A stretch of DNA of 64,000 bases. It comes from a bacterium (GTDB taxonomy: Bacteria > Patescibacteriota > Minisyncoccia > Phycocordibacterales > UBA918). The translations under genes were made by a program, and so were the position numbers. A model generated the notes under the pieces. That model did not search any database. It was not told the DNA's origin and saw only the letters and a program-made list of their open reading frames with translations. Below are positions 5,529 through 41,842 of this stretch, in pieces. The DNA lies in NCBI GenBank assembly GCA_043719295.1, contig JAYSUD010000006.1, forward strand, positions 17,318 through 81,317, read 5' to 3'. Positions within the stretch are counted from its first letter, which is position 1. The number at the start of each line of letters is the position of its first letter.

Positions 5529-5561
5529 GGTGATATGTAATTGTATTGATAATTTTCTAAC

Positions 5562-5603: not shown

Positions 5604-5702
5604 ACAGACATCATATACCTCAACTTGCATTTAAATTTCATCTCTTGTGGATAACAAATAGTTCGAATCTGTACCTATATAAGTTAAGTATGTACAAAAA
5701 GT

Positions 5703-5808: not shown

Positions 5809-6921
5809 ATGAAGCAACATTCGTTTCTACTGATATTTTTATTTATAGTATTTTGTAGTACTGATTTTACGTATGCTGTTGAACCTAATGCGGGAATTGT
5901 ACAAGGGCTTTGGTATGGCAAAGAAAAAATATTTGCAGATGAAACCGTACGTATGTATGTGGCAATTCGAAACTACACGGAAAGTGACTTAACGGGCACA
6001 GTTGAGTTTTTTGATGGCGATAAACGAATTGAACGGAGGTCAGTTACTGCACTTGATGGACGTATTATTGAAAGTTGGGCAGATTGGACACCAAGCTATG
6101 GTACACATAGCTTAAAAGCAACACTCTCACGAATTGAACTTTCTAAAGTTGGATCTACAACACAAGAGGTAACGGTGACATCGTCACTTGCAGAAGATAC
6201 TGTTTTTGTTGACTACGATACTGATGGTGACAATATTGGTAATGAAACTGATAGTGATGATGATGGGGATACTATCACTGATATACAAGAAAAAAAGGAT
6301 GGCACTAATCCACTAGTTAAACAAAAAGTTATCCAACCACAGAGCACAAGTAATAGTTCAAATGAAAATGAAGGTAATTTAAATTCCTCAGCGGAAAGTA
6401 CTGATACTTCCGACAATACGGCCACACGTTCAGGTCTAAACAATCGCTTAAATACCAGCTCATCAAACTCCCCCCAAGGTCTTGAACAGTATCTTGCACC
6501 AAGCCCAGCAGAGACGGCACTTGGAACCGTAACCAACTACATTACAGAAACAAAAACGAATCTTGATACGTATCGAGAAAATCGAAATGCAAAAATTGAA
6601 GCATCTCTTGCCTCTTCAACAAAAATTGAAGTAAACAATGATGGCTTTGGTGCAATCACGCGAACTGACACAAAGGACACCAGGAATTCTTCAGTGACTA
6701 TTCCTAAAATTGAAGGTGAAGGTTTCTTTGACAAGCTTTTTACTTTCATAGGAAGTATCGCAACAAAGCTCTACACCTTTATCCTCGCTACACTCTCATT
6801 TATCCTGGCGCATCCCATTTTTATACAACTTGGCCTTTTACTTCTCATACTCTTTGGCCTCATAAAACTAGCTTCAAAATTCGGCCGTCGTCCGAGCCTT
6901 AAAAAACAAAAAACAAACTAG
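5809..6921 (+). CDS. Secreted protein of 370 aa with a TSP3-like Ca-binding repeat, a Ser/Thr/Asn-rich region and a C-terminal transmembrane anchor with a basic tail.
   Basis: N-terminal signal MKQHSFLLIFLFIVFCS; DYDTDGDNIGNETDSDDDGD; C-terminal hydrophobic helix LGLLLLILFGLIKLASKFGRRPSLKKQK. Confidence 0.7.
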   Translation: MKQHSFLLIFLFIVFCSTDFTYAVEPNAGIVQGLWYGKEKIFADETVRMYVAIRNYTESDLTGTVEFFDGDKRIERRSVTALDGRIIESWADWTPSYGTHSLKATLSRIELSKVGSTTQEVTVTSSLAEDTVFVDYDTDGDNIGNETDSDDDGDTITDIQEKKDGTNPLVKQKVIQPQSTSNSSNENEGNLNSSAESTDTSDNTATRSGLNNRLNTSSSNSPQGLEQYLAPSPAETALGTVTNYITETKTNLDTYRENRNAKIEASLASSTKIEVNNDGFGAITRTDTKDTRNSSVTIPKIEGEGFFDKLFTFIGSIATKLYTFILATLSFILAHPIFIQLGLLLLILFGLIKLASKFGRRPSLKKQKTN

Positions 6922-6946
6922 TACGATATATCGTACTAGTTTGTTT
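6911..6946. terminator. Perfect 36-bp palindrome, AAACAAACTAGTACGATA|TATCGTACTAGTTTGTTT, followed by TTTTT. It acts as a bidirectional terminator between convergent genes. Its core TAGTACGATATATCGTACTA recurs at 8930.
   Basis: Perfect inverted repeat that overlaps the stop codon of the 5809..6921 gene. Confidence 0.7.
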
Positions 6947-6991: not shown

Positions 6992-7837
6992 TTATTCTAC
7001 AGGTTCATGAGTATGATCATCATGACCATCGTACTCAGGAATCCAGGTTACGTGTGTAAATACCATTTCACCTGAAACAGCTTTTCGTGCATAGAGTGAC
7101 GGATTATTTTTTGCATCACGTTTCACTACTTCGCCCCATGTTGATGGTTTACTGTGACCAGTTTCTTTTTCAACACTTTCCGACAGGGTTTTTGCTCCAC
7201 TGTTACTTGATAACGCAGCTGTTTTTGTATATGAATCAAACGTATCTAGGTGTGCGTAGATTGCTGCAAGCTGCTCATAATCATGGGCATCAGGACGCTG
7301 ATTCGGAACAGGATTGTATGAGTAATCCATACAAGTACCCTTTGTAGTATTGAAGTCCTCATCATTGTGACCTAAACCAAGAGTGTGACCAATTTCTTGA
7401 CACACTACAGCCTTCCGCCACGCAACGGTGTTGTATGTTGAGGTATTGTAATAAGTATCATTAAGCTTTACGGTACCTTTTGTTATATGATCACCACTTA
7501 CCCATATTTCTGCTATACCAAGCCAGCCGTTTGACCCATAGGCATCATTACAAACCTCAACCATTCCATTAACACCAAGACAACTTCGTGAACGCTTTTG
7601 TGCTTTTAACGCAAAATCAACTACTGGCGATTTGTTCCAATCAACCACAGCGGCCTTCATAGAAGACTGCCATTGATAGGACATACTATTTTTCACTTGA
7701 ATGGTAAACGTTGGTGTAGTGCGAGCCCAGTGATAATTTCCCCATGCGTGATTTGCAAACGCATACGAAGCAAAAAAGAATAAACATACAGTACTTACTA
7801 TCGCAACAACTGACACTCGTTTAATTGTTAAAACCAT
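6992..7837 (-). CDS. Secreted zinc metalloprotease of the metzincin/matrixin type.
   Basis: The likely start is MVLTIKRVSVVAIVSTVCLFFFA, a signal peptide. The zinc site is VVCQEIGHTLGLGHNDEDF, matching HExxHxxGxxH. Confidence 0.75.
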   Translation of the reverse strand: MVLTIKRVSVVAIVSTVCLFFFASYAFANHAWGNYHWARTTPTFTIQVKNSMSYQWQSSMKAAVVDWNKSPVVDFALKAQKRSRSCLGVNGMVEVCNDAYGSNGWLGIAEIWVSGDHITKGTVKLNDTYYNTSTYNTVAWRKAVVCQEIGHTLGLGHNDEDFNTTKGTCMDYSYNPVPNQRPDAHDYEQLAAIYAHLDTFDSYTKTAALSSNSGAKTLSESVEKETGHSKPSTWGEVVKRDAKNNPSLYARKAVSGEMVFTHVTWIPEYDGHDDHTHEPVE

Positions 7838-8072
7838 GGTAATTACTTGAATAATAATTTTACTACTATACCATAGAAAACCTATTTTGTCACGCATTTT
7901 TCAACTTTATGCTCAAATATATGGGTATTTTCAATTTTTTTAAAGAAAATTTACTCAAAAAGACCCGTCTACTTATCCTTTGCAGGACTATTATTAGAGA
8001 TATTATATTTTGGATTTCAAAGAAAACTATATTTCCCTTCAAAAATCTGTTCTTTTGGTTAACACATTGAAG

Positions 8073-8093
8073 CCGCACCTGTGGGGTGCGGCC
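8073..8093 (-). terminator. GC-rich hairpin, GCCGCACC-tgtgg-GGTGCGGC, immediately downstream of the stop of the 8105..8770 gene.
   Basis: An 8-bp GC stem, but with a weak U-tract. Confidence 0.35.
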
Positions 8094-8104
8094 TGTCTTA
8101 TATT

Positions 8105-8770
8105 TCACATCATCAGGTCTAGCGCCATTTTCTTGGAGATACCCTTTTTGTAGTCTCTGAATCCACCAATTTGGTGAACAAAGCCGTCTGGTGTAACCAA
8201 GCAATTTTCTAAGGCTTTTGTATTTGCACCATCATCATCAATGGAAAGAACATTCACCTGTGTCCCTGTGGAATAAAGTGTGTCACGCAATTCCCGACAT
8301 CGTTTTTGATCACCAGCAACAGGTCCTTCATCTGTTGAGATATCTAAGACTCGCCGTAATGTTGTTTTTTCTTTTTTGCTAAAGTAGCGAAGTACCTCTT
8401 TGTGGAAAGTCCTTCCACCACCAAAAGTTTCAGTTGGCGCGCTTGCGATGAGTTCTTCACCGAGAGACATAAAGTCATCAACATTCAGCATCTGCATAGA
8501 AAAGAGTGGGAGGACGGTGTCAGCCCAAACAAATACAGATACCAAGGGTCGATACGGCAACCATGATTCTTGTATAACCGGCATCGCCAGGGCTTCAACA
8601 TGACCTCGAAGTTGTACCAAAAAATGATTGGTAAATTTTTGAAACATACTTGAGGAACAATCCAACAACAAACAAAGCTCTACCTCAACTTTTGTTGAAG
8701 CTTTAAGAACAAATGGTACACACAAACTTCCGGCACCTAAACTAAACGACCTTCTGTTCATACCCGACAT
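8105..8770 (-). CDS. vWA-like domain protein carrying the MIDAS motif DxSxS (DUF1194-like), with an N-terminal Tat-like RR motif.
   Basis: The likely start is MSGMNRRSFSLGAGSL at 8770. The protein contains LLLDCSSSM. Confidence 0.55.
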   Translation of the reverse strand: MSGMNRRSFSLGAGSLCVPFVLKASTKVEVELCLLLDCSSSMFQKFTNHFLVQLRGHVEALAMPVIQESWLPYRPLVSVFVWADTVLPLFSMQMLNVDDFMSLGEELIASAPTETFGGGRTFHKEVLRYFSKKEKTTLRRVLDISTDEGPVAGDQKRCRELRDTLYSTGTQVNVLSIDDDGANTKALENCLVTPDGFVHQIGGFRDYKKGISKKMALDLMM

Positions 8771-8929
8771 TTTAGTACCTCTCGTTTCTAAATTGTTATG
8801 GCAGTGTGCCCATTGATAATGTAAACCCACAGACATCAACCGTCAAGCAATAAGTTCTGAAATTCAAAAACAATCTTCTCGCTAGGGTACTCCTAAGATT
8901 TTTTAGGTAAAAAACTTAACAAGTCCCCG

Positions 8930-8957
8930 AAAATAGTACGATATATCGTACTATTTC
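8930..8957. repeat. Perfect 28-bp palindrome, GAAATAGTACGATA|TATCGTACTATTTC. This is the second copy of the TAGTACGATATATCGTACTA core.
   Basis: It shares an identical 20-bp core with 6911..6946. It lies in the divergent intergenic region between 8770(-) and 9158(+). Confidence 0.7.
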
Positions 8958-9157
8958 TTCAAAGTTGTACCCATGACAGTACATAGGCAAGGTCTATGTA
9001 GTCACGTTTCTATTTATTAGCAGCAGACGCATTTTGCCTAGGTGGAGCTATTTGAGGGGAGTTGTAAGATTAGACCCATAGACGCATCTCCAACATTCGC
9101 TTTGCCCAGAGGTTTAGATGCTTGTGGTATCATTTTTATATTAAATTAAAATTACAT

Positions 9158-10378
9158 ATGCATCTCAAAAAATACTTTTTATTGTCACTATTGCTATCGA
9201 CTTGCTTTTTAAGCACTCAAGGACGCTTAGCAAATGCACAGATGCCAAGCACAACAAGTCAGCCTGAAATTAACTCACAGATCATTACAGAACTCTTGGC
9301 ACAGCTATATGATCTACAAGAACAATTGAAGAATCTGCTGAAATACGAAGATGGCAAACCTTTGAATACTGTTACAGAGATTATTGGACCTAAAACAGTC
9401 ACTGTTGGTGAATACACTACTTGGAAATTTGTTACAAAAGATAAAGATCCTGAAAATTCAAGTCCTGTAATGATAGATTGGGGCGACGGAATGACATCAG
9501 CCACTGGTTCAGGACATACCTATAGTGCACCTGGAACCTATACTATAGTTGCAACACATCATGACGGTAATGGTATGGCAGCTAGTCTTTCATTTAAAGT
9601 TAAGGTAACTCCTAACGTTAGTACGGGTTCTCTCACGGCTTGGGGGAATAAACTTGTAAGTAATAAATCTCTGATCCCAAAAAATCAATTTCGCTCGTAT
9701 TTTTTTGATACAAAAAGCTTTAAAGTTGTATCTGCATCAGAAGTTGTAGACCAGCCATTTTTCTTTTATCCTAATGATTCATTCAGTATCAGGATAAGTG
9801 ATCAATTTCAAGAACACACACTTGGTGCATATTGGGTAGGTTCATTCTCGTACCCTAAGGACACAACAGTATATCTTGATTTTTCTGACCCTCAGTGGGA
9901 TACCGTTCGATTTATAATTGACGGAAAAACAGTCATTGAAAGTAGCCGACGTGATACAAATTTAAAATCACACCCAATTAAACTTAAAAAAGGTATCCAC
10001 ATCATCGAAGTTGAGTACAAGGTAAACTGGCACGCTGGTTTTTTCAGAGCAAAAGTAGGTACTAATGATCCAAACTACGTAGACATAAAAACAGCACAAG
10101 TAGCAGCTCGTGCTATTGCAGGAAAGAGTGCCGTTATGGTATCTCTAAAGGAATACAGTTCTGGGAACACGCTCACAGGGATTACTCCAGTCTCTATTTC
10201 CAATACTGTTACATCGAAGATTCTTGATTTATCTTCATATGAGGCCACTCTATGGGATGTGCAAGGAGCTAATACTAAAGGTGTAAAGGCTATTATTCTC
10301 TCTTCGTTCGCTGGTGCAGCTGATGTAATCAATGCAGATACGATACCAATTTTCAGAACAAGAAATTATTCTGAGTAA
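9158..10378 (+). CDS. Secreted PKD-domain plus PA14-domain protein.
   Basis: The start is MHLKKYFLLSLLLSTCFLS, a signal peptide. The PKD-like segment is VMIDWGDGMTSATGSGHTYSAPGTYTIVATHHDGNG. The PA14-like segment is YWVGSF...IIDGKTVIES...GIHIIEVEYKVNWHAGFFRAKV. Confidence 0.65.
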   Translation: MHLKKYFLLSLLLSTCFLSTQGRLANAQMPSTTSQPEINSQIITELLAQLYDLQEQLKNLLKYEDGKPLNTVTEIIGPKTVTVGEYTTWKFVTKDKDPENSSPVMIDWGDGMTSATGSGHTYSAPGTYTIVATHHDGNGMAASLSFKVKVTPNVSTGSLTAWGNKLVSNKSLIPKNQFRSYFFDTKSFKVVSASEVVDQPFFFYPNDSFSIRISDQFQEHTLGAYWVGSFSYPKDTTVYLDFSDPQWDTVRFIIDGKTVIESSRRDTNLKSHPIKLKKGIHIIEVEYKVNWHAGFFRAKVGTNDPNYVDIKTAQVAARAIAGKSAVMVSLKEYSSGNTLTGITPVSISNTVTSKILDLSSYEATLWDVQGANTKGVKAIILSSFAGAADVINADTIPIFRTRNYSE

Positions 10379-10440
10379 TTATCTTTAAGTCTAAGTTCAG
10401 TAGATCTCAAATTTGAATAGTGCGTTCAGTAGATAAGAAA

Positions 10441-10466
10441 AAAGACCCTTTCGGGTCTTTTTTCTT
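10441..10466. terminator. Bidirectional rho-independent terminator, AAGACCC-tttc-GGGTCTT plus TTTTT.
   Basis: A hairpin with a T-run after the stop at 10378. An A-run on the opposite side serves the minus-strand rpsG. Confidence 0.75.
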
Positions 10467-10473
10467 TGGAATT

Positions 10474-10585
10474 TTAGAATTGGATGCAGGGCGAGGCGTG
10501 CAAAGAAATTTTTGTGAGCCGTACGAATAGTACGGTGAACAAAAATTTCTGTAGTACAACGAAGCGATGCGCCGATTCTGGAATT
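10474..10585. repeat. Family A structured repeat, copy 1. Its core hairpin is GAAATTTTTGT-gagc-CGTAC-gaata-GTACG-gtga-ACAAAAATTTC.
   Basis: About 100 bp, homologous to 11241-11345. It shares its core with 15843-, 18285- and 41708-. The ORF 10397..10660(-) is an artefact of this repeat. Confidence 0.7.
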
Positions 10586-10586
10586 T

Positions 10587-11060
10587 CTACCAAGCGAAGT
10601 GGGCGAAAGCTCGGTTAGCTTCAGCCATCTTGTGTGTATCTTCCTTCTTCTTGACCGCATTTCCTTCTTCTTTTGCTGCCATCATGATTTCTTTAGCAAG
10701 TGCCTTGAACATTGGAACTCCTTTTTGACCGCGTGCTGCAGTGATTATCCATCGGAGGGCCAACGCATGACGTCGTTCAGGTCGTACTTCTCGTGGTACT
10801 TGGTAGTTTGCTCCACCTACACGCCGCGAACGTACTTCCATCTGTGGACCTGCATTTTTAAGTGCTGTATCAAATACTACCAATGGGTCTCCCCCTCCCT
10901 CTTTTGCATTTTTGATTTCTTCAAATGCTGCGTATACAATTTTTCGAGCTGTTTCTTTTTGGCCTCGCATCATCACATAGTTGATGAGCTTTTCTACTTC
11001 CGTTGATGCAAACCTGATGTCAGGCTGCACAACGTTTCGATTTTTAATTGGTCGTCTCAC
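10587..11060 (-). CDS. rpsG: 30S ribosomal protein S7.
   Basis: [17 protein letters not shown]...[19 protein letters not shown]...[12 protein letters not shown], a full-length S7 match. Confidence 0.92.
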
Positions 11061-11240
11061 AATATTGTTTCTTAATTTGAGTAATAATTAAGAATGAGAA
11101 ATATGGCATTCCACACTTTCATTCTTCGCATATTTTGATGCCGAAGGTTTCCCTTGCATCTCGTCCGTTATCTATAGCGAATATAGACTATTTATTTGTA
11201 ATCTGCTGGTTGGTATATCTAAAGCTCACAATTCTTTTTA

Positions 11241-11345
11241 AATTGGATGAGTTGCGCGAAGCACAAGGAAATTTTTGCGACACGTACGTTGTAGTACGTA
11301 GAGCAGAAATTTTCGTAGTGCGACAAAGCAAACCGCCAATTTTAG
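11241..11345. repeat. Family A structured repeat, copy 2, lying in the rpsL-rpsG intergenic region.
   Basis: AATTGGATG...GAAATTTTTGCGACACGTACGTTGTAGTACGTAGAGCAGAAATTTTC... aligns with 10474-10585. Confidence 0.7.
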
Positions 11346-11350
11346 AAGAA

Positions 11351-11764
11351 TTATTTCGCTTTAGGCATCTTTGCTCCGTACCGAGATCTCCCCCGTCGTC
11401 GCGCATCTACCCCTGTTGAGTCGTACTTTCCACGAACAATGGTGTATTGCACACCAATGTCTTTTACCTGTCCACCACGCACCAAGACCACAGAGTGCTC
11501 TTGTAGTGTGTGACCAATACCTGGGATGTATGCAGTAATTTCCTGACCGTTTGAAAGTCGAACACGCGCAATCTTTCGAATCGCTGAGTTCGGCTTACGT
11601 GGAGTCTTTGTAGTTACTCTCGTACATACCCCACGCTTGAATGGCGAGTTGTATTTGTTTGGCTTGTTTTCAATTGAGTTGAAACCAAGTTGTAGTGAAC
11701 CAGTCTTAGACTTGTTCGCTTTTGTACGTCGGGGTGTCTTTGTTAATTGATTTATTGTTACCAT
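11351..11764 (-). CDS. rpsL: 30S ribosomal protein S12.
   Basis: The start is [25 protein letters not shown]. The C-terminus is ...[41 protein letters not shown]. Confidence 0.92.
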
Positions 11765-11900
11765 AAAGCCCGCATACTGTACTACAAAGCACGATTTCTG
11801 CAAGTCTCTCTACCTGTTTTTTAGTTCTTAATATTGAGTATTGTCACAATATACGCAAAAACACCCTAAACGGGTGTTTTTAGACACACTAATTACAAAA

Positions 11901-12962
11901 TTAGTTAGAAATCTGTATTTTGTTTGTTACAAAATTTGCTGCAGGTTTAAATTGAACCTGTTTTAAACCTACAGTACTTGGAGTTGCTGCCCAATTAAGT
12001 GCACCTAACTGTAACTGGTACATCCCCGCTACAGTTGGATCAAATACTGCGGTAAGTGTGAAGGATGCAGTCTCACCTTCGTTGATAACAAAGAAATTGC
12101 CACTTTTATCTGCAGTAGAATCTAAAGTAGCTGTTCTTGAACCAGGTCGTGATTCTTTCCCATCTCCTTGAGAAATACTGTATCCAACTCCCCAAACTGC
12201 GGAAGCCCCAGCAATACCGCCATCAATTGTAGTTTGCGGTACATATACGTCAGAATCATTTGCAGTAATCTCAAACTTTGCGGTAAACCGTCCAGCATCA
12301 TCTGTCGCGGTTGATGCGCTATTTGTTACCACAACTGCTTCGTTTCCTAGTGATTTAAAAACTGGTCCGGTAGTAGCAACTGGTACAGTTGTTGATCCTG
12401 TAGACTTAATTTGTGCTATCCGTGCTTTGATTTGTGCAGATTTAGCTTGCAACTCAACAATTTTAGCGTCAACTTCTTTTTGTGAAGCCATAAGACGTGC
12501 AAGTTCGTTACCTTTACAATCACTACTTTTTGAACCACTTAGTTCTGCACCTTTACTGACACTCTCTTTAGTAAGTTTTGAACTCATAAGTCGGCATTCA
12601 GGACGAAGTGGCTTCAGGTACCCATTTGCACTACTACTTGCTGACGTACTCTTCACTGAAGGAACTTCAATTTTTTGAGCACCACCAAGTATGCTTATTT
12701 GATTTCTTAAAGCAGCAATTTGTATCTGTAATTCTTGTGCTGTGGTGCCTGTAGTTACACCCTTAACTTCACCTTGTGGAGCAAGTTTAGAAAGCAACGA
12801 AGACACTATCATTGAAGCATTAGTAAGTTGGTTCTCCATTTTGGCTAGCCTCTGTATATCTGCAGCGTGTGCCGATACTACAGAAGAGGCAAAAATTGCA
12901 ATGCTCATCCCTACAGCAATAAATGCCTGCTTATTAATTAGATTTGTAAAAACTGTATTCAT
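11901..12962 (-). CDS. Secreted coiled-coil protein of 353 aa, function unknown.
   Basis: Signal peptide MNTVFTNLINKQAFIAVGMSIAIFASSVVSAHA. Heptad-like segments IQIAALRNQISILGG and AQIKARIAQIK. Confidence 0.6.
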   Translation of the reverse strand: MNTVFTNLINKQAFIAVGMSIAIFASSVVSAHAADIQRLAKMENQLTNASMIVSSLLSKLAPQGEVKGVTTGTTAQELQIQIAALRNQISILGGAQKIEVPSVKSTSASSSANGYLKPLRPECRLMSSKLTKESVSKGAELSGSKSSDCKGNELARLMASQKEVDAKIVELQAKSAQIKARIAQIKSTGSTTVPVATTGPVFKSLGNEAVVVTNSASTATDDAGRFTAKFEITANDSDVYVPQTTIDGGIAGASAVWGVGYSISQGDGKESRPGSRTATLDSTADKSGNFFVINEGETASFTLTAVFDPTVAGMYQLQLGALNWAATPSTVGLKQVQFKPAANFVTNKIQISN

Positions 12963-13000
12963 ATTTAATATATAAACTTTTTCTATTTGATAAAACTTTT

Positions 13001-13034
13001 AACAACAAAAAAGGGACGCCCTAACGGGCGCCCT
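13001..13034 (-). terminator. Terminator for the M50 protease gene, GGGCGCCC-gtta-GGGCGTCCC plus TTTTTTGTTGTT on the minus strand.
   Basis: A GC hairpin plus U-run downstream of the stop at 13121. Confidence 0.6.
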
Positions 13035-13120
13035 CCGTATGAATACAATATCGTACTTCAATGACTACACAATGTGCGTATGGTGGATAAGTAACAATCA
13101 TCTTTATGCACAAAGCTTTT

Positions 13121-13762
13121 CTACCCACTAATTCCCGTCAGGAGAGAAACAACGTTTGATACAAAACCGAAAAATGGAGTTGCAAATACTTGGAGGAAAA
13201 TAAAGATAAACGCGAACATTGCGAATATGCCGTATTGTTCAATCCACATTGTAAACTCTTTATATTTTTGTTGTAGCTTGTACGGCAGTACTGCCATTAA
13301 AATCTTTGATCCATCAAGTGGTGGGATAGGGAGCATGTTAAACAACGCAAGAAGGATATTGATATAGACAATATACCAAGCCATCTGTACAAACGAAGTA
13401 CCAAGGTTCAATACTTCTGCAGAACGGATAATGACAGAAAAGATTACTGCTAAAAATACATTCACTGCAGGTCCTGCAATTGCAACCAGAGCCTCTCCCC
13501 ATTTTTGATTTCGAAGATTGTACGGGTTGTACGGAACCGGTTTTGCCCACCCAAAGAGTATCCCCGCGTTACTAATGATCAAAAGTGCCGGCAAAATAAT
13601 AGATCCAAGGAGGTCGATGTGTACTAATGGATTTGGTGATAGGCGCCCTTGAAGTCGTGCAGTTGGGTCACCAAGTGCATTAGCGGCGTATCCATGTGCC
13701 ATTTCGTGAAGAATAATAGAAACAATCAAAGCAATAATCCCAAATATCTGTGTAATATCCAT
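13121..13762 (-). CDS. Site-2 protease family membrane metalloprotease (peptidase M50).
   Basis: MDITQIFGIIALIVSIILHEMAHGYAA carries HExxH inside a transmembrane helix. The protein has multiple transmembrane segments. Confidence 0.75.
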   Translation of the reverse strand: MDITQIFGIIALIVSIILHEMAHGYAANALGDPTARLQGRLSPNPLVHIDLLGSIILPALLIISNAGILFGWAKPVPYNPYNLRNQKWGEALVAIAGPAVNVFLAVIFSVIIRSAEVLNLGTSFVQMAWYIVYINILLALFNMLPIPPLDGSKILMAVLPYKLQQKYKEFTMWIEQYGIFAMFAFIFIFLQVFATPFFGFVSNVVSLLTGISG

Positions 13763-13937
13763 AATGGGTATCAGTATACACCATCTTAATATTCACCAAA
13801 TTCCTAGAGTATGTTCAAAAAGTTCAGAGACGACGCGAGCAAATGAAGAAATGTGAGACATATTCAATATATGGTGAATGTTTCTGAACGCAGCGCAACG
13901 ATGTATGTGGGATTTTTGCACATACTCTAAGAGGGGC

Positions 13938-13965
13938 TTGCAATATGGGGCATAAATGCTAGTAT
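13938..13965 (+). promoter_or_regulatory. Sigma-70-like promoter for rpmB, with -35 TTGCAA, a 16-bp spacer and -10 TAGTAT.
   Basis: The hexamers lie about 25-50 bp upstream of ATG 13988. Confidence 0.45.
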
Positions 13966-13987
13966 AGCGGGACTCAAAAACAACTAT

Positions 13988-14230
13988 ATGGCAAAAGTAT
14001 GTGAAATTACGGGCAAGAAGACCCAAATCGGTGGAAAATACAGTAACCGCGTTCGTGCGACACAGTTTAATCCGTGCGGAAAAGTAAAGCGACAAGTAAA
14101 CCTCCACAAGAAACGAATCTATGTTGCAGAGCTCGATACAACCGTTACTATCAAAGTTTCAACAAAAGGACTTCGAACAATTGCAAAGAACGGAGCATAC
14201 GCAACACTCAAAAAAGCTGCCCTTATCTAA
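13988..14230 (+). CDS. rpmB: 50S ribosomal protein L28.
   Basis: MAKVCEITGKKTQIGGKYSNRVRATQFNPCGKVKRQVNLHKKRIYV... Confidence 0.85.
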   Translation: MAKVCEITGKKTQIGGKYSNRVRATQFNPCGKVKRQVNLHKKRIYVAELDTTVTIKVSTKGLRTIAKNGAYATLKKAALI

Positions 14231-14339
14231 ACTAGAAGACAAAAATCGGAGCTACATGCTCCGGTTTTTTGTATGTGTTGAATCGTCAAAATAGAGTATA
14301 GTTCAAAAGTGATTAATAAATGCACATATTTTGAGCAAA

Positions 14340-15221
14340 TCATTTCTGCCAAACAGTTTCTCCATCTGACAGCATCGTAATAGTTCCCTCTTTTGCAGTT
14401 TCTAGTATTTGAACTCGCTTATTAAAAAGTAAATCAGTTACTTCTATATGTGGGTGACCATACGAATTATCTTTGCCTGCTGAAACAATGGCAAACTTGG
14501 GTTGCACTTCATCGAGATAGAGTTCCGAAGTTGAGGTTCGTGAACCATGGTGGCCAAGTTTGAGTACGTCACTTTTTAGACTTTCTCCTTCTGTAAGGAC
14601 TAAATATTCCTCAATACTTTTTGGCGAATCTCCCGTAAACATGAACGTACTACTTCCATAAAGTAGCTGAAATACAATAGATGAAGTGTTGCTTTCCATG
14701 TTGGTTGGGTCTGAATCTGGAAAAAGTATTTGTAGTGTTGTAGAGGCATCAAGATGGAGTGTTTGTCCGCGTCGAGCAATAAGAATCTCTGCCCCTTCTC
14801 TAGTTTTAAGTTTGGTATACGATTCTGAAGTCGCTGTATCTCCTTTATTTTCAGTGGTGAGAATTTTTAAAACTTTATACCGCTTAAGCACATCAATCAA
14901 TCCTCCAATATGGTCTTTATCAGGATGTGTACCGACGACAATATCGATGGTTCTGTCAAAAAAATTCATTTCCGAACTGAGCCTTCGCAATACCGTTGCG
15001 TCCTTTCCTCCATCAACAAGCACCTGTACCCCAGAAGGCGTTTCAATTAACGCTGCATCACCCTGTCCCACATCAAGAAAATGAACTTGGAGATACGGAC
15101 TTGTTTTTGATTCAAGAAGTGGAAAAGTAGCATGGCTATAGGGTAAAAACCATACCATAGAGGCACAGGCAAGGAGTACCAAAATAACCATGAGCCGCAT
15201 GCGTACAATACTGTCCTTCAT
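14340..15221 (-). CDS. MBL-fold metallo-hydrolase matching the C-terminal beta-lactamase-like domain of ComEC/Rec2, encoded here as a separate gene.
   Basis: HFLDVGQGDAALIETPSGVQVLVDGG...VVGTHPDKDHIGGL...LKLGHHGSRTS. It also has an N-terminal transmembrane helix. Confidence 0.75.
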   Translation of the reverse strand: MKDSIVRMRLMVILVLLACASMVWFLPYSHATFPLLESKTSPYLQVHFLDVGQGDAALIETPSGVQVLVDGGKDATVLRRLSSEMNFFDRTIDIVVGTHPDKDHIGGLIDVLKRYKVLKILTTENKGDTATSESYTKLKTREGAEILIARRGQTLHLDASTTLQILFPDSDPTNMESNTSSIVFQLLYGSSTFMFTGDSPKSIEEYLVLTEGESLKSDVLKLGHHGSRTSTSELYLDEVQPKFAIVSAGKDNSYGHPHIEVTDLLFNKRVQILETAKEGTITMLSDGETVWQK

Positions 15222-15270
15222 ATGCTACTAATGATACACTCTATTTATTATTACAAACTAACATTGCTGT

Positions 15271-15843
15271 ATGTACGAACTAAAAAAATTTGAAATTGGA
15301 ACACTTGACGGAATTTCAGAACAAACAATACAAGAACACCTTGGGTTATACGCCGGGTATGTAAAACATGTCAATTTGATCCAAGAAAAAATTGTAGAGA
15401 TGAAAGAAGATAGTGAAAAAAATGCATACGCACTTGCTGAAGTGCAACGACGACTCGGATTTGAATTTGGGGGGATGAAAAATCATGAAGCCTATTTTGC
15501 TCAATTTGAAGGTGGTGCACATGCGATACCTCAAGGGAAACTTAGTGACATGATTGCTACACAATGGGGTTCATACGAATTGTTTTTAGCACAATGTAAA
15601 GCAACCGCCCTTACACGAGGCATCGGGTGGGTAATGCTCTACAGTGACTCACAATCTAATCAACTTGTCCTGACGTGGGTTGATGAGCAACACATTGGAC
15701 AACTGCCTGATGTAAAAATTGTGCTTGCACTTGATATGTGGGAACACTCATACATGCTTGATTATGCACCAAGTAAAAAGAAGGAATACATTGAAGCTTT
15801 TTTCAAAAACTTGAATTGGGAAGTAGTTGCAAGTCGAGTATAA
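15271..15843 (+). CDS. Fe/Mn superoxide dismutase family protein.
   Basis: C-terminal DMWEHSYMLDYAPSKKKEYIEAFFKNLNWEVV resembles the SOD motif DVWEHAYY...NWD. The N-terminus is SOD-like. Confidence 0.7.
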   Translation: MYELKKFEIGTLDGISEQTIQEHLGLYAGYVKHVNLIQEKIVEMKEDSEKNAYALAEVQRRLGFEFGGMKNHEAYFAQFEGGAHAIPQGKLSDMIATQWGSYELFLAQCKATALTRGIGWVMLYSDSQSNQLVLTWVDEQHIGQLPDVKIVLALDMWEHSYMLDYAPSKKKEYIEAFFKNLNWEVVASRV

Positions 15844-15975
15844 ATTGGAACCTGCAAAAACGGCACACTTCTTCGTTGTGCTGCACAAAATACTCCTCAC
15901 CGTACTATGCGTACGACTCGTCTTATTTTGCTTGCACGTCTCGAATTGCACTCGTTTTTTTCAGGTCCTATCGAA
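15843..15975. repeat. Family A structured repeat, long copy 3. Its core is CACAAAATACTCCTCACCGTACTATGCGTACGACTCGTCTTATTTTG.
   Basis: About 87% identical over roughly 110 bp to 18285-18400. The ORFs 15748..15951(-) and 18177..18377(-) translate alike (MQFET.K.N.TSRT.STVRSILCSTTKKCA) and are artefacts of this repeat. Confidence 0.75.
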
Positions 15976-15991
15976 ATTTGCAGATGGACAC

Positions 15992-16025
15992 AAAAAAAAT
16001 GGCTCCGCTGGAGCCATTTTTTTGT
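15992..16025. terminator. Bidirectional terminator, AAAAAAATGGCTCC-gct-GGAGCCATTTTTTT.
   Basis: A perfect stem with A and T runs, lying between sod(+) and the 16037..16627(-) gene. Confidence 0.8.
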
Positions 16026-16036
16026 TGGAAACTATT

Positions 16037-16627
16037 TTATACAACTGCTGTTGGGGCACTTGCTTCTGCTTGAAGTTCCTTGTAAATCTTAATTGATGCA
16101 AACCAAGTAACAATAAGCATTACTACTGCTCCAATAATAAAGAAGAGTAACCCAAGGAGCACGAGAAGCCCTGACACGAGCGTGAAGAAAAATAACTTCC
16201 ATTTATACCCATTTGTAAGTGCACTACTTGCCTTTAATGCTTCAAGTGGTCGCATTCCTTTGTCTATCACGTAGAACTCTGCAAACATCCAACGAATACA
16301 CAGGTAGATTCCAGGGACAATGAAACAAAGGGTACCTAAAATTATAAAGAGTGCTTTGATGACACTTAAAAAAGCGAAGTATACCCACCGTTGATCAATG
16401 GTAAATATATCGTCAAAAATAAGTGTCCCGCCGTTATAGTGCTTGAAAAGGAGTGCAAAATAACCTCCAAATACAATATACGAAAGTGCAGTTACTAACG
16501 CCCCACTACCACTTGCAGCTGCAAATAGTCCGAAGGTTGCTAATGTCAGTCCAAGCAAATACCACGGACGTTTCATGAATAATGTCCATCCAGCCCCAAT
16601 TGATTCAAATATTTTAATGTTTTTCAT
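16037..16627 (-). CDS. Polytopic membrane protein (DUF975-like), function unknown.
   Basis: It has 5-6 predicted transmembrane helices and no catalytic motif. Confidence 0.55.
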   Translation of the reverse strand: MKNIKIFESIGAGWTLFMKRPWYLLGLTLATFGLFAAASGSGALVTALSYIVFGGYFALLFKHYNGGTLIFDDIFTIDQRWVYFAFLSVIKALFIILGTLCFIVPGIYLCIRWMFAEFYVIDKGMRPLEALKASSALTNGYKWKLFFFTLVSGLLVLLGLLFFIIGAVVMLIVTWFASIKIYKELQAEASAPTAVV

Positions 16628-16669: not shown

Positions 16670-18292
16670 TCACCTGAAGAAAATTGGGGTATCATTAAAA
16701 GTCGATTTCAATGTAACGGGAACAAGCGTTTGTTCTTCAACGACAGTCCAGTCATGACTTTTTGAAATTAGCGGACGGCCTGGTCTCGAGGCTTTTACAT
16801 ACAATCTCCACAGAATGAGTGCATACAGGAAATACACAATGACAACGACGTAAAATGGAAATGCCGGAACAACGTAGCTTGCAAACGGAAGTTTTGCAAA
16901 GACCTCTGCTATTAAAATGATGTATGCCAAAGACATGTATGCCATATATCCAACTAACGAAGAGAGTGTGGTGCTTATAAAGCCAACCATCCCAGTAATA
17001 AAGATAAGCACCATTGCAACGGGAACCATTGGTAATACTAAGAGATTAACAAATACAGCAACCACTGAAAGTTGCCCCATTTGATACAAAAGGATTGGGG
17101 TAATAAAAATCTGCGTTGCTAACGTTGCAGTGAGAAACTCTCGTAACTTAAACCATGTGGGCATAAACCTAACATAGAAGGCAAGATGTGGTGACACGAG
17201 AATGAGACCTAGGGTTGCAATAAACGAAAACTGAAATCCAACATCGTACACCAGAAGGTACGGATTCAAAATGAGCATGAAAAAACCGGTAAGCACTAAT
17301 GCTCGTAAAACAACATACGTTCTTTCAGTCGCCTGAGAAAGCAATAGTAACAATGCCATCGCACTTGCTCGCATAACTGTTGGAGAAAGTCCAACCAGTA
17401 TCGCAAACAACAAAATTGAAAGTGCCCCACATACCAAACGTAACCGCATAGGTAAAAATAAAGCAAGTAGATACATTACAAACAAAACTACTAACATGAT
17501 GTTGTACCCTGAGAGCACCACAATGTGAATAATGCCAGTTGTTCTAAATGATGCTTCAATATCTTTTCCGAGTGCTTGTTTTACTCCAAGAAGCAGTCCT
17601 TCTCCAAGTCCTGCGTACGGTTCTGGTAACACCGCCTCAATATTACGCATGAACAAATGTTTAAATTCAAGAATATTTTTTAAAATAACACTCGCCTGAT
17701 TTTGTTCTATCACCGTAACTTTTGCAAAAGAAACTACGTAGTGTACGCCGCGCGCATTAAGATACCCTTGGTAGTTAAAGGTTCTTCCAATATCAGTTTC
17801 AAATGAAGTGGGCTTTGCGAGCTTCCCTGTAAAAGAAACTTTGTCTCCGTATGAAACGTCAACGTATCTATCGGTTGTCACCAAAAGAAGTTCGTTATTT
17901 ACTTTCACATAGAGATGCTGGGAAGAGGCTCGAATATCGGGTTCACGAACAATGATTCCCTCTTCTGACAGAACTGTATCGAGCTGTGATTGATAGTGCG
18001 GATTTTCTTCAAAGTGTACTTCTCTATCCATTCGAAGAAGCCCTAAAGAGAAGGAGCAAAGGCACAGTGATAAAAGTAAGAGCAGTGAAGCGGCACGTGT
18101 ATTTTTTTTCTTTAAAGACACCAAACAAAGTGCGAGACCTATACAAAAAATCCACAGTATCCAAGGTAGACCGATACTAAAAAATGAGCGTATGAAAATC
18201 CCTAGAGTAAAACCAACAATGACCCCGTAGATAGGCACTGTCTGCATCAATACAAGTGTAACAGAAATAATTAGGACTTTTGGAAATGGCAC
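16670..18292 (-). CDS. comEC: ComEC/Rec2 DNA-uptake channel protein, carrying the DUF4131-like and competence domains but no MBL domain.
   Basis: ...LLLGVKQALGKDIEASFRTTGIIHIVVLSGYNIMLV... is the competence-domain signature. The protein has many transmembrane helices. The track start is GTG 18292. Confidence 0.75.
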   Translation of the reverse strand: MPFPKVLIISVTLVLMQTVPIYGVIVGFTLGIFIRSFFSIGLPWILWIFCIGLALCLVSLKKKNTRAASLLLLLSLCLCSFSLGLLRMDREVHFEENPHYQSQLDTVLSEEGIIVREPDIRASSQHLYVKVNNELLLVTTDRYVDVSYGDKVSFTGKLAKPTSFETDIGRTFNYQGYLNARGVHYVVSFAKVTVIEQNQASVILKNILEFKHLFMRNIEAVLPEPYAGLGEGLLLGVKQALGKDIEASFRTTGIIHIVVLSGYNIMLVVLFVMYLLALFLPMRLRLVCGALSILLFAILVGLSPTVMRASAMALLLLLSQATERTYVVLRALVLTGFFMLILNPYLLVYDVGFQFSFIATLGLILVSPHLAFYVRFMPTWFKLREFLTATLATQIFITPILLYQMGQLSVVAVFVNLLVLPMVPVAMVLIFITGMVGFISTTLSSLVGYMAYMSLAYIILIAEVFAKLPFASYVVPAFPFYVVVIVYFLYALILWRLYVKASRPGRPLISKSHDWTVVEEQTLVPVTLKSTFNDTPIFFR

Positions 18293-18400
18293 ACTTCTTT
18301 GTTGTACTGCATAAAATGCTCCTCACCGTACTACGCGTACGACTCGTCGCATTATATTTGTACGTCTCGAATTGCACTCATTTCCAAAAGTCCTAATAAA
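18285..18400. repeat. Family A structured repeat, long copy 4. It is a direct repeat of 15843-15975, and the two copies flank the comEC plus membrane-protein segment.
   Basis: GGCACACTTCTTTGTTGTACTGCATAAAATGCTCCTCACCGTACTACGCGTACGACTCGTC...TTGCACTC. A terminator-like hairpin follows at 18402-18432 (GGCCCCGA-acgtaatg-TCGGGGCC). Confidence 0.75.
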
Positions 18401-18802
18401 GTTGGCCCCGAACGTAATGTCGGGGCCATTTTCATGATAAGGGAACCCTACCATTGCACGCTATTGTTTTCACACTAGCGCGCGTGAACGCAATATGGTC
18501 AACATGGATGACGGGGGTGTTGCAGACAGGTGCGTTTTCGCCTCGAATCCACAGCATTCCGTTTTGCCTCACTGATCCGACGACCATTGGTGGTGCCGAT
18601 AAGTTTCATGAGGAATCTCCTTGTTACCGAGTCATCATTAAAATGAAAACATAAAAAGCCAGGACTCGGGGAACTGGCCTACTCGTACGATACCTGTATA
18701 CGTGTTCTTCGTCAATACAGCGAAAGTGCAGATACAAAAAACCGCTCGTTTAAAAAATAAACGGCGGCTGGTGCGGGAGCGAATTCCCCCGCACCATATA
18801 CT

Positions 18803-40143: not shown

Positions 40144-41670
40144 ATGCCCTTGATAACGTTAGCTGCATTAATTGCAGCATTACTTATCGGCATTGCTTTT
40201 GGATACTACCTTCGATACCTCCACGCCCTCTCGAAGAAAGCATCTATTGAACTTGAAATAAAAGAAAAAGCGCTAGAAGCAGACGAAAAAGCGCTTAAAA
40301 TTATTGAAAAAGCGGAAGCGAAAGCCGAAAAGATTGCTGAAGAAGCAAAACAAGAACTAAAAGAAAAGGAAGATAAGAACAAACACAAAGAAGAGCGTTT
40401 GGAGAAAAAAGAAGAACTTCTTGATGAACGACAAATTAGCCTCGACTCAGAGAAAGAAGCAGTCCGTTCAAAAATTGAAGAAGTTAAAAACTTGAAGACT
40501 CGCCTTGACGAACGTAAAGGTGAACTTGATGTGAAACTTGAAGAAGTAGCTTCACTCTCACAAGAAGAAGCATTTTTGATGGTTGTAGATCGCATGACCA
40601 TTGAACGGGCACAAGACCTATCAGTTCGTGTCCAAAAACTATCATTTGCAGGAGAAGAAGCGTTTGAAGCAAAGGCTCAAAACATTTTACTTGCAGCAAT
40701 GCATCGGGTTGGTAACAACATGCCGAGTAACGTGATGACTTCAAACGTTGAACTTCCAAGTGATGACCTTAAAGGTAAAGTCATTGGTAAAGAAGGGCGA
40801 AACGTTCGTGCATTTGAACGTGCAACAGGTGTTGATGTGCTCATTGATGAGACTCCAGGATACATAACTTTGTCATCGTTTGATCCGATTCGCCGTGAGA
40901 TTGCAAGAACCGCACTTGAAGCACTCTTAAAAGACGGTCGTATTCAACCAGCAAAAATTGAAGAGGCTGTTGAAGAAGCGAGAAAAGAAGTGTCAGCAAT
41001 GGTTCGAAAAACGGGAGAGAAAGCAGCGTATGAAGCAAACGTGCCAAACCTCCACCCCGATTTACTTACCATCTTGGGACGCCTCCACTTCCGAACGAGT
41101 TATAGTCAAAATGTGCTTGCTCACTCAGTTGAGATGGCACATATGGCAGCAATTATCGCAGAAGAAGTTGGAGCGGACGTTGCTGTGGCAAGAGCTGGCG
41201 CACTCCTTCACGATATTGGAAAGACGGTAAGTCACGAGGTCCAAGGAACGCACGTTGAAATCGGTATTCGTATCCTTCAGAAATATGACGTCGATGAAAA
41301 GGTAATCCTTGCTATGCGTGCACACCATGAGGAATATCCGTACGAGACACCAGAATCAATCATTGTCCAAGTATGTGATGCATTGTCAGGTAGTAGACCA
41401 GGAGCCCGACGTGACTCAATTGAAAATTATATCAAACGTCTAACTGAACTTGAGGCTATAGCGACGAGTATTACTGGGGTTGATAAAGCATTTGCAATTG
41501 CAGCAGGTCGAGAGATACGCGTTCTTGTGAACCCTGAAGTACTTTCAGACTTTGACAGTACAACGTTAGCGCGCACTATCGCTATGAATATTGAAGCACA
41601 ATTGCGATACCCCGGTGAGATTAAGGTGCATGTTATTAGAGAGACACGAGTAGTTTCATACGCCCGATAG
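40144..41670 (+). CDS. rny: Ribonuclease Y.
   Basis: N-terminal transmembrane helix, coiled coil, KH domain (GKVIGKEGRNVRAFERATGVD) and HD domain (LLHDIGK). Confidence 0.9.
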   Translation: MPLITLAALIAALLIGIAFGYYLRYLHALSKKASIELEIKEKALEADEKALKIIEKAEAKAEKIAEEAKQELKEKEDKNKHKEERLEKKEELLDERQISLDSEKEAVRSKIEEVKNLKTRLDERKGELDVKLEEVASLSQEEAFLMVVDRMTIERAQDLSVRVQKLSFAGEEAFEAKAQNILLAAMHRVGNNMPSNVMTSNVELPSDDLKGKVIGKEGRNVRAFERATGVDVLIDETPGYITLSSFDPIRREIARTALEALLKDGRIQPAKIEEAVEEARKEVSAMVRKTGEKAAYEANVPNLHPDLLTILGRLHFRTSYSQNVLAHSVEMAHMAAIIAEEVGADVAVARAGALLHDIGKTVSHEVQGTHVEIGIRILQKYDVDEKVILAMRAHHEEYPYETPESIIVQVCDALSGSRPGARRDSIENYIKRLTELEAIATSITGVDKAFAIAAGREIRVLVNPEVLSDFDSTTLARTIAMNIEAQLRYPGEIKVHVIRETRVVSYAR

Positions 41671-41707
41671 ACGTTTTCTAAGACCTCATCTACTTTGTTG
41701 GACTGCA

Positions 41708-41752
41708 GAAATTTTTCCTCACCGTACGCCATGTACGGCTCGCAAAAATTTC
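41708..41752. repeat. Family A core hairpin, copy 5, GAAATTTTTCCTCACCGTACGCCATGTACGGCTCGCAAAAATTTC.
   Basis: It has the same CCGTAC-N5-GTACGG core and AAATTTTT/AAAAATTT outer arms as the copies at 10505 and 11268. Confidence 0.65.
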
Positions 41753-41805
41753 ATTGTCCGCCGCGTATCTGAAGCCTTATAAAACGTCTATACAATATGA
41801 ATACA

Positions 41806-41842
41806 CAAAAAACAGGAGAGACTTTGTCTCTCCTGTTTTTTG
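41806..41842. terminator. Bidirectional terminator, AAAAAACAGGAGAGAC-ttt-GTCTCTCCTGTTTTTT.
   Basis: A perfect 16-bp stem lying between rny(+) and the 41854(-) gene. Confidence 0.85.

Follow-up and report, generated by a model that had tools for sequence, protein, structure and literature searches.

What is the hairpin that recurs between the genes of a 64-kb stretch of a Patescibacteria contig (64,000 nt of JAYSUD010000006.1, hereafter the window), and why does it stand where it does, even in the spacer between the ribosomal protein genes rpsL and rpsG? An earlier reading of the sequence, which we call the original prediction, listed five copies and described them as resembling a miniature inverted-repeat transposable element (MITE) or a REP sequence, or as a family of structured RNA motifs. 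The description as a structured, dispersed intergenic repeat holds, and to it must be added a set of properties that had gone unnoticed: polarity, anchoring at stop codons, TA flanks, a conserved apex above a variable base, and a strong asymmetry between the two strands. The interpretation that we favor, with a probability of roughly one half, is that of an old, polar, TA-flanked, non-autonomous palindromic element that is co-transcribed 3' of genes and has been retained under selection.

Six copies were found in the window, about one per 10 kb, each of them an imperfect hairpin of 120-133 nt. The five copies listed originally are real, lie at or close to the positions where they had been placed, and can be aligned with each other, under a structure-aware model as well; they are homologous, with a mean column identity of 71-72% across ~130 nt. 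Their core, CGTAC-N5/6-GTACG, occurs five times in the window against an expectation of 0.04 from dinucleotide-preserving shuffles, and the better strand of each window copy has a fold z-score between -4 and -10. Two covariance models were used, R1 built from the five window copies and R2 from 88 copies of many genomes, under which these five copies score 104-143 bits. R2 picks exactly six copies in the 64 kb and nothing else above noise. It is also strand-specific, giving 104-123 bits on the strand that folds better in each copy, which is called the structured strand throughout, and at most 16 bits on the opposite strand. The sixth copy, at 13801-13934, is diverged and had been missed; in its apical stem CATAT-N5-ATATG takes the place of CGTAC/GTACG, which amounts to two compensated pairs. 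Likewise, the listed copy at 41708-41752 proved to be only the apex of a full hairpin of 128 nt (41666-41793). The outer arms AAATTTTT/AAAAATTT that had been described as common to the family are present in three copies but are not a fixed motif, since they read AAAATAC/GTATTTT in the copy at 15843 and AAAATGC/GCATT in that at 18285; the helix that they form covaries among the window copies.

The repeat is far from confined to the window. A 20-base degenerate pattern scanned against one genome per GTDB species matched at least 109 loci from at least 59 other genomes, and the family statistics below cover these loci, taken as 8-kb blocks around the matches (identified by L numbers), together with the window. 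Model searches of the loci yielded at least 166 further non-overlapping full-length copies, bringing the total to at least 172 copies in 60 genomes. Among the matches listed, almost all hosts are metagenome-assembled genomes (MAGs) labelled as Patescibacteria groups (Kaiserbacteria, Paceibacteria/Paceibacterota, Nomurabacteria, Zambryskiibacteria, Parcubacteria, "Patescibacteria group" and "Saccharibacteria"). The complete chromosome of Treponema vincentii OMZ 806 carries three copies in 8 kb, among ABC-transporter, BspA-LRR and scpA genes, and full-length copies were also found in a Treponema MAG, two Clostridia MAGs, a Phascolarctobacterium MAG and an Oligoflexia MAG. Some bins labelled Azotimanducaceae, Acidimicrobiales or Methylomarinum contain contigs with Patescibacteria-like gene content (L040, L064, L073 and L088 of JBLHGD; L045 and L098 of JBLIMJ; L041 of CAYMPX). 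These are probably mis-binned or mislabelled Patescibacteria, to judge from their gene content and because their rpsL-rpsG region is 71% identical to that of the window; among the matches listed, such contigs are the closest to the window, at 70-76% over rpsL-rpsG.

The family is absent from the catalogues that we searched; in kind it resembles the ERIC, Correia and REPIN elements. At gathering thresholds, Rfam 15 recognized two tRNAs and no copy of the element in the whole window, and an Rfam scan of 10400-18500 by E-value gave no match to any copy up to E = 5. Pattern scans of IMG/VR returned zero matches, so the element is not phage-borne. BLAST searches with one copy found no match in phage or plasmid collections, blastn found none in 5,426 complete E. 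coli genomes, and full-text literature searches retrieved no description of the family. Many conserved MITEs have been reported in Spirochaetes, without detail (PMC11602168).

The element is palindromic from end to end and contains no open reading frame (ORF). Its ends follow the consensus TA-RRAC...GTYY-TA, and the basal stem of ~15-20 bp opens with RRAC...GTYY but is otherwise wholly different among copies while remaining paired. Above it lie a covarying 3-bp helix (UUC/GAA), a purine-rich internal loop in which AGGCG or CGAAG faces AAC(R)AAG, a variable helix of 4 bp and an A/U-rich helix of 8-10 bp. A symmetric loop, 5'-GAG/UGA-3', made of a G·U pair and tandem G·A/A·G, separates these from the apex, a 6-bp stem around CGUAC/GUACG closed by a loop of 5-6 nt that is mostly U-rich. 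Conservation is thus strong at the apex and the inner loops and weak in the basal 15-20 bp and the ends. The structure was assessed on a MAFFT alignment of 88 copies (A8) that was not fitted to any structure. Of its 29 predicted inner pairs, 28 show changes on both sides; 91.8% of cells are paired, where shuffles give 68.6%, and the covariation score of 0.57 compares with 0.16 for shuffles and with 0.07-0.10 for controls with slid partners. On all five measures used, 0 of 500 shuffles reached the observed values. Even the "invariant" apical stem covaries at one locus, where CGTAC/GTACG, CGTGC/GCACG and GGGAC/GTCC(A) were all found. Truncated copies that keep the inner ~70 nt only also exist. 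In one copy (L015:5867-5999), a perfect, GC-rich hairpin flanked by T-tracts on either side, that is, a bidirectional terminator, stands in place of the apex, which indicates that the apex can be swapped while the outer helices stay.

The hairpin carries neither of the signals expected of a terminator or of an independent transcript. No U-tract or enrichment in T follows it on either strand, and a canonical terminator lies within 110 nt downstream of 30% of the copies, compared with 12% in the control; the absence of a U-tract and the presence of a canonical terminator near only ~30% of copies rule out that the element is itself an intrinsic terminator. No promoter signal (-10/-35) was found at a fixed distance upstream of the structured strand, which speaks against a promoter of its own for that strand.

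The two strands of the element are not equivalent. In all 172 copies the structured strand folds better than its complement, with mean energies of -51.6 and -38.8 kcal/mol, respectively, and a median difference of -12.7. This gap almost disappears when G·U pairs are forbidden. Specifically, the structured strand has G·T rather than A·C at mismatched pairs in a ratio of 610:118 in the model alignments, 249:45 in the unfitted alignment (171:44 after removal of one conserved G·U) and 114:34 within the variable basal stem of stop-anchored copies. Its unpaired positions are 43% A and 28% G (71% purine), and the tandem G·A/A·G motif is present on this strand only. Mutational sources of the asymmetry were considered. 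A transcription-linked mutation bias was ruled out as the origin of the G·T excess, as the bias persists in copies of the opposite orientation and is therefore intrinsic to the element; a replication-strand bias was ruled out in the window, where the GC skew is uniformly negative and the copies point both ways, following the genes. Snap-back synthesis of the second arm was rejected by reasoning, because the conserved mismatches and asymmetric loops would be lost.

The position of the element relative to genes is equally one-sided. Gene calls were crude (longest non-overlapping ORFs of at least 90 aa), and polarity was counted on the 152 copies flanked by genes on both sides. In 125 of these, the neighboring gene 3' of the structured strand points at the element, which makes that strand antisense to the gene; 83 of these stop-side copies lie between co-directional genes and 42 between convergent genes, while the other 27 copies have the other orientation. 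The end of the model match overlaps the stop codon of the abutting gene, with a sharp mode of the offset at -7 (31 cases) and minor modes at -3 and -16/-17. An offset of -7 makes the stop codon the T-A-R of the outermost stem positions, so that the TAR at the base of the hairpin is often the stop codon itself. The abutting genes end in TAA 66 times, in TAG 29 times and in TGA once (95 of 96 in TAA or TAG), compared with 379 TAA, 173 TAG and 100 TGA among the other ORFs of the same loci. Copies of the minority orientation, including those of T. vincentii, place the same end of the element ~10-20 nt before a start codon. On the other side the distance is long and variable, and the next start codon is less than 60 nt away in 24 of the 83 co-directional cases; an extra conserved module on this long-spacer side was ruled out, the downstream regions being heterogeneous. 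The window follows the same pattern. Four of its six copies begin 0-4 nt past stop codons (rpsG, rpsL, sodA and rny, the TAG of rny being inside the stem), a separate canonical bidirectional terminator lies beyond three of these four as one reads on from the gene, and the remaining two copies (on the comEC side and in the M50/rpmB spacer) have the opposite orientation.

No copy stands directly behind any of the ~28 tRNA genes in the loci, which ties the element to the ends of protein-coding genes. These upstream genes are diverse housekeeping genes, including those for SSB (6), S7 (5), S12 (5), FtsA (5), LepA (4), MreB (3), GroEL (3), SecY and ATP synthase. Because it starts at the stop codon, the element is predicted to be part of the mRNA, forming the first ~130 nt of the 3' untranslated region (3' UTR) or of the intercistronic spacer. 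As part of the favored interpretation, and with the same even odds as the whole, we consider it to be co-transcribed as a 3'-UTR or intercistronic hairpin, on the strength of its sequence context.

Comparisons between copies point to an old family whose members come and go, some of which are held in place. Two copies have a mean identity of 0.55 if they share a genome, 0.55 if they occupy orthologous sites and 0.52 in all other cases, with a maximum of 0.86 within a genome, and among the matches listed the nearest relative is found in another genome for 137 of the 172 copies. Identities that are about equal whatever the relation speak for no recent burst and no concerted evolution; the latter was ruled out within genomes because copies of the same genome are no more alike than others. 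On the one hand, copies have been gained or lost between related genomes, for which four sites, each occupied in one genome and vacant in a relative, are direct evidence. L055 has an extra copy inserted exactly at a stop codon, flanked by TTAA...TTAA, where the same gene in L046 has a single copy, and the comparison of L060 with L058 is compatible with insertion at the TA of a stop codon. T and A were found at both flanks in 49-58% of the copies, and some non-orthologous pairs with unrelated flanks are 0.83-0.88 identical, both within and between genomes. On the other hand, four orthologous pairs have elements far more similar than the third codon positions of the neighboring genes (0.92 against 0.50 for L008/L033, 0.89 against 0.51 for L033/L047, 0.84 against 0.52 for L010/L001, and 0.80 against 0.48 for L035/L087), which argues for constraint in place. 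Clusters of tandem, head-to-head or multiple copies, up to five in 3 kb, were observed at L055:5816-6084, L015:5727-5999, L057:5948-6234 and L082:2087-4985, and suggest insertion next to or into existing copies.

Taken together, these observations would fit the following course of events. The element would insert at the TA of a TAA or TAG stop codon, and its own first purine would regenerate the stop. It would spread by a TA-duplicating transposition supplied in trans, survive where insertion is harmless, that is, at stop codons, and then be retained by purifying selection, since a cistron would benefit from a long hairpin at its 3' boundary. Such a hairpin could act as a barrier to 3' exonucleases, as a processing site for a double-strand RNase or as an insulator between cistrons. 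Roles of this kind in mRNA have been reported for ERIC, Correia/NEMIS and REP elements.

Several observations weigh against this scheme. The TA duplication is clean at one junction only (L055), and, L060/L058 apart, divergence prevents the remaining junctions from being read. Neither a transposase nor a related autonomous element was identified, although no systematic search for transposases was made, and the combination of weak ends, a strong center and ~55% identity within genomes is unlike a classical MITE. Some pairs at the same site are as different as random members of the family: the copies of the window and L010 are 0.53-0.55 identical at the rpsG and rpsL sites, where third codon positions are 0.52-0.54 identical, and such dissimilar copies imply that copies are also replaced or re-inserted. 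The likely effect on the protection of mRNA 3' ends, on processing or on the insulation of cistrons is argued by analogy only. Most importantly, the strand present in the mRNA is the poorer folder in each of the 172 copies, the structured strand being antisense in 82% of copies with genes on both sides. An RNA selected only as a sense hairpin would predict the opposite asymmetry, and the placement of the features typical of a fold on the antisense strand is left unexplained by an element retained for its role in mRNA.

The main rival takes that asymmetry as its starting point. It holds that the repeat is a purely selfish single-stranded DNA element whose folded antisense strand is the substrate of a hairpin-recognizing enzyme, either a Y1/HUH transposase in the style of REP/REPIN-RAYT or IS200/IS605, or an integrase acting on one folded strand as in integron attC sites, with no function for the host; the orientation bias would then arise because copies with the active strand exposed or transcribed are lost or harmful. 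A structure that is strand-specific in all 172 copies, whichever way transcription runs, the conservation of mismatches and purine loops as in known single-strand substrates, and the gain and loss of sites between relatives all agree with it, as does the similarity to attC sites, in which the template strand of the preceding ORF folds better and structure is conserved above sequence. However, the orthologous copies that far exceed third codon positions are unexpected for a functionless passenger, the ends, where such enzymes usually cut, are poorly conserved, and neither the GTAG/CGTC tags of REPs nor the RYYYAAC/GTTRRRY boxes of attC are present. Moreover, the orientation of the window copies follows the gene and not the constant GC skew, and no candidate enzyme was found, again with no systematic transposase search. 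This explanation accounts for the strand asymmetry and not for the conservation in place, and we regard it as unlikely, albeit the best placed of the rivals. We hold with equal hesitation the related idea that the functional molecule is the folded antisense (template) strand itself, which would make the repeat a new class of polar, stop-anchored elements. That strand may serve as a one-way insulator that halts antisense polymerases where essential genes end, or as a single-stranded DNA site for a recombinase or nuclease in the manner of attC.

Another rival sees in the element a barrier that works in one direction, against antisense transcription entering highly expressed genes from their 3' ends. 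The strong hairpin would form in the RNA of polymerases arriving from the 3' side, by convergent read-through or from spurious antisense promoters, so that antisense transcripts would be stopped or marked at the gene boundary, while the weaker sense hairpin would let operon transcription pass. This would unite stop anchoring, polarity and the better antisense fold, and it suits the highly expressed housekeeping genes upstream of the element and the three convergent cases of the window in which a copy lies between a bidirectional terminator and the gene to be protected. Yet no U-tract follows the hairpin on the antisense strand, 83 of the 125 stop-anchored copies lie between co-directional genes without an obvious antisense source, and the conserved, sequence-specific loops suggest recognition by a protein rather than a generic roadblock. 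Such a barrier seems to us rather improbable.

The remaining explanations can be given very little weight. One takes each copy for a small RNA gene, whose structured strand would be transcribed under a promoter belonging to the copy and would act in trans, for instance to titrate a protein or to guide it. The covariation, G·U pairs, tandem G·A and A-rich loops of that strand and the strand preference of the model (104-123 against at most 16 bits) suit this reading, but there is no promoter-like signal at a fixed upstream distance and no terminator after the structured strand, three window copies carry a terminator just ahead of that strand, and in 24 of the 83 co-directional cases fewer than 60 nt separate the element from the following start codon. 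A site that gyrase, a nucleoid protein or another DNA-binding protein would recognize as duplex or cruciform where highly transcribed genes end, as has been proposed for REP/BIME, is just as hard to sustain: the location after highly expressed genes and a long palindrome that could be extruded suit it, but a cruciform or a dimeric duplex binder predicts neither G·T/A·C asymmetry nor polarity, both of which are strong, and the half-sites beside the apical palindrome are conserved but asymmetric (GAG on one side, TGA on the other). Equally improbable is a translation-linked signal acting on termination, ribosome recycling, read-through or the coupling with the following cistron. In its favor, most copies have the stop codon at the foot of the stem or within it, at a sharply peaked offset, and tRNA genes lack the element (0 of ~28). 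Against it, 18% of copies have the other orientation, often just before start codons, the following start codon comes at no constant distance, the translated strand is the weaker folder, and TA-targeted insertion followed by selection explains the stop position equally well.

Among known systems, the element resembles ERIC, Correia and REPIN elements yet belongs to none of them. ERIC (or IRU) elements of enterobacteria and vibrios are imperfect palindromes of ~127 bp located in transcribed intergenic regions, flanked by TA and conserved across genera, and they have orientation-dependent effects on mRNA stability in Yersinia. The repeat described here shares with them its size, long imperfect hairpin, transcribed intergenic location, TA flanks, distant hosts and low burst signature, but it has no sequence similarity to them (0 matches in the 5,426 E. 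coli genomes), occurs in hosts of different phyla, and differs in being anchored at stop codons, with 82% polarity, a conserved apex and a variable base. The Correia/NEMIS elements of Neisseria are TA-duplicating MITEs of 100-155 bp that are co-transcribed with their neighbors and whose hairpins are cut by RNase III. They too are TA-flanked miniature palindromes, co-transcription being predicted for ours, and by analogy they suggest how the repeat might plausibly act in RNA processing or stability. In contrast to the weak termini and ~55% identity seen here, Correia elements have conserved terminal inverted repeats of 26 bp and highly similar copies within a genome.

The attC sites of integrons are imperfect palindromes of 57-141 nt located directly after an ORF, the functional folded strand being the template ("bottom") strand. 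In our family, the better-folding strand is likewise antisense to the abutting gene (125 of 152 copies), which is a resemblance only, and structure is likewise conserved above sequence. Unlike in attC, the R boxes RYYYAAC/GTTRRRY are absent (the base reads TARRAC...GTYYTA), the apex and not the base is conserved, and the neighbors are syntenic housekeeping genes (rpsL, rpsG, ssb, ftsA), with no cassettes, array or integrase at the loci. Intrinsic terminators are also hairpins at the 3' ends of genes, but the element is 4-5 times longer, is AT-rich, has no U-tract and often lies inside operons, and in the window it stands upstream of separate canonical terminators. With REPs and REPINs it has in common compensatory changes, hairpins and clusters formed by insertion beside existing copies (L055, L015, L057). 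REP/BIME sequences and REPINs are palindromes of extragenic DNA that fold into long hairpins as mRNA or as single-stranded DNA, with compensatory changes and long persistence (PMC3116915; PMC3733652). However, REPs measure 20-40 bp and carry a GTAG or CGTC tag, as opposed to 120-133 nt and TA-RRAC...GTYY-TA ends, and REPINs have REPs conserved at the base and a variable spacer, as opposed to a conserved center and a variable base (PMC3116915; PMC3733652). As for MITEs, the repeat is a small non-coding palindrome with presence and absence at orthologous sites, but its copies within a genome are not near-identical. A CIRCE-like operator, a SECIS or k-turn motif and an attC site were also considered and dropped, as the defining features are lacking.

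To our knowledge, Patescibacteria have tiny, streamlined genomes, and their RNA biology and mobile DNA are almost unstudied. In such genomes, a single element of 130 nt fills a measurable share of the intergenic space and does so beside core genes such as rpsL, rpsG, ssb, ftsA, groEL and secY. Landing on a stop codon and rebuilding it, if that is what happens, would be an elegant niche for mobile DNA where almost no genome sequence is to spare. Should the folded template strand be functional, the repeat could be an analogue of attC within the housekeeping core of Patescibacteria, shared with spirochaetes. The anchoring at stop codons, the distribution across phyla and the structure on the antisense strand are likely to surprise specialists, and why the structured strand is not the transcribed one is a concrete question that can be tested in a cultivable host, T. 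vincentii OMZ 806. For annotation, long spacers such as that between rpsL and rpsG should be expected in these lineages, where the covariance model can mask or label them.

Table 1. Copies of the hairpin element, neighboring genes (named by Pfam; rpmB read from sequence) and terminator-like hairpins in the window; fold energies are in kcal/mol.
Feature	Coordinates	Strand	Fold energy and model score	Position and remarks
Copy 1	10470..10585 (model match 10462-10594)	+ (structured)	-54.7 (+) vs -31.3 (-); 122.6 bits	Read on -, begins 1 nt past rpsG stop (10587-10589, TAG); bidirectional terminator next
Copy 2	11236..11347 (model match 11225-11358)	+ (structured)	104.4 bits	Apical loop 6 nt; read on -, begins 3 nt past rpsL stop (11351-11353, TAA), in rpsL-rpsG spacer
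Copy 3	13805..13929 (model match 13801-13934)	+ (structured)	49.8 bits (R1), 64.5 bits (R2)	Diverged; divergent spacer between M50 peptidase gene (start 13762, -) and rpmB (13988, +)
Copy 4	15848..15968 (model match 15841-15974)	- (structured)	-46.0 vs -31.2; 112.8 bits	On +, begins 4 nt past sodA stop (15841-15843, TAA); upstream of bidirectional terminator
Copy 5	18270..18397 (model match 18267-18399)	- (structured)	-55.3 vs -43.3; 115.6 bits	Minority orientation: structured strand sense, ~20 nt upstream of likely comEC start
Copy 6	41666..41793 (model match 41663-41794)	- (structured)	-58.0 vs -40.6; 108.1 bits	RNase Y stop (41668-41670, TAG) within stem base; terminator follows on +
rpsG (ribosomal protein S7)	10587-11060	-		Copies 1 and 2 on either side
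rpsL (ribosomal protein S12)	11351-11761	-		Likely start ATG (MVTINQL); listed ORF to 11803
M50 peptidase	13121-13762	-		
rpmB	13988-14230	+		
Fe/Mn superoxide dismutase (sodA)	15271-15843	+		Stop abutted by copy 4
DUF975-like membrane protein	16037-16627	-		
ComEC channel domain	16670-c.18250	-		
RNase Y (rny)	40144-41670	+		Stop inside stem of copy 6
Prephenate dehydratase	41854-42426	-		
Terminator-like hairpin, bidirectional	10437..10464			A-tract, GACCC-TTTC-GGGTC, T-tract; between PKD-domain ORF and copy 1
Terminator-like hairpin, bidirectional	15992..16023			A8-TGGCTCC-GCT-GGAGCCA-T7; directly after copy 4
Terminator-like hairpin	18403..18428			Beside copy 5, preceding it; scored on both strands
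Terminator-like hairpin, bidirectional	41806..41841			Directly after copy 6

The rpsL-rpsG spacer, whose length had been described as unusual, is indeed 290 nt long (11061-11350), but it is not peculiar to this genome. The order rpsL-element-rpsG-element was found in the window and in at least four other genomes, L010, L040, L077 and L057, the last of these with an additional inverted copy, so the site of copy 2 is likewise occupied in those four loci. In L001 a copy follows rpsG only and that between rpsL and rpsG is absent, and a Clostridia MAG locus (L080) has the order rpsL-rpsG-element-fusA. The genes of the genomes that share the arrangement are only ~70-76% identical in DNA to those of the window. 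The common order makes the long spacer a feature of the lineage and not a local oddity. The accompanying statement that rpsL and rpsG are normally tightly coupled was too strong, considering that E. coli also has a structured spacer of ~100 nt between them. Copy 2 is probably inside the rpsL-rpsG transcript, judging from the sequence, since no terminator-like site was found in the spacer of the window.

In the window, rpsG is not followed by fusA (9122-11060); a convergent ORF of 418 aa with a weak match to a PKD domain stands there instead. Directly upstream of rpsL lies an ORF of 353 aa (11901-12962) with no Pfam match. ORFs of exactly 353 aa occur near the same operon in L010 (6872-7933) and L057 (1008-2069), the likeness being one of length and place only.

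Further downstream, the copies at 15843 and 18285 had been described as direct repeats with ~87% identity over ~110 bp that bracket comEC and a membrane-protein gene. They are direct repeats, with 83% identity over 115 nt or 86% over 79 nt, but they do not delimit a unit: one abuts the stop codon of sodA and the other lies ~20 nt before the start of comEC. Their identity to copies elsewhere (0.74-0.75) equals that to each other (0.75), and a composite transposon around comEC is ruled out by this placement and by a similarity no higher than that to copies of other genomes. ComEC itself is apparently split into a channel part (DUF4131 + Competence, 16670-18292) and a metallo-beta-lactamase part (14340-15221). 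The two ORFs are ~1.4 kb apart on one strand, with sodA and the DUF975-like membrane gene in between.

Other repeats were also observed in the window. A second, unrelated family occupies long intergenic gaps at 24303-24504 (two tandem units) and 39624-39887 (inverted units). Its units form a near-perfect 16-bp hairpin (ACUUACUGUAGAACACGGCUAACGCCGAGGUUCUACAGUAAGU) with fold z-scores of -4 to -5 and have no Rfam match at the gathering threshold. Two nearly identical perfect palindromes of 27 nt (AAACTAGTACGATATATCGTACTAGTT), intergenic at 6915-6941 and 8930-8956, flank the block 6992-8839 and could be operator sites, terminators or the ends of a unit. Two further palindromes, long and AT-rich, at 59973-60032 and 55184-55246, have arms of 28-29 nt with 93-97% complementarity, and one of them is located just upstream of a tRNA gene (60063-60133). 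Finally, two giant ORFs at the beginning of the window (1-5630; 558+ and 1252 aa) contain internal repeats of 120-300 nt with 60-82% identity and, from their sequence, look like surface or adhesin-type repeat proteins.

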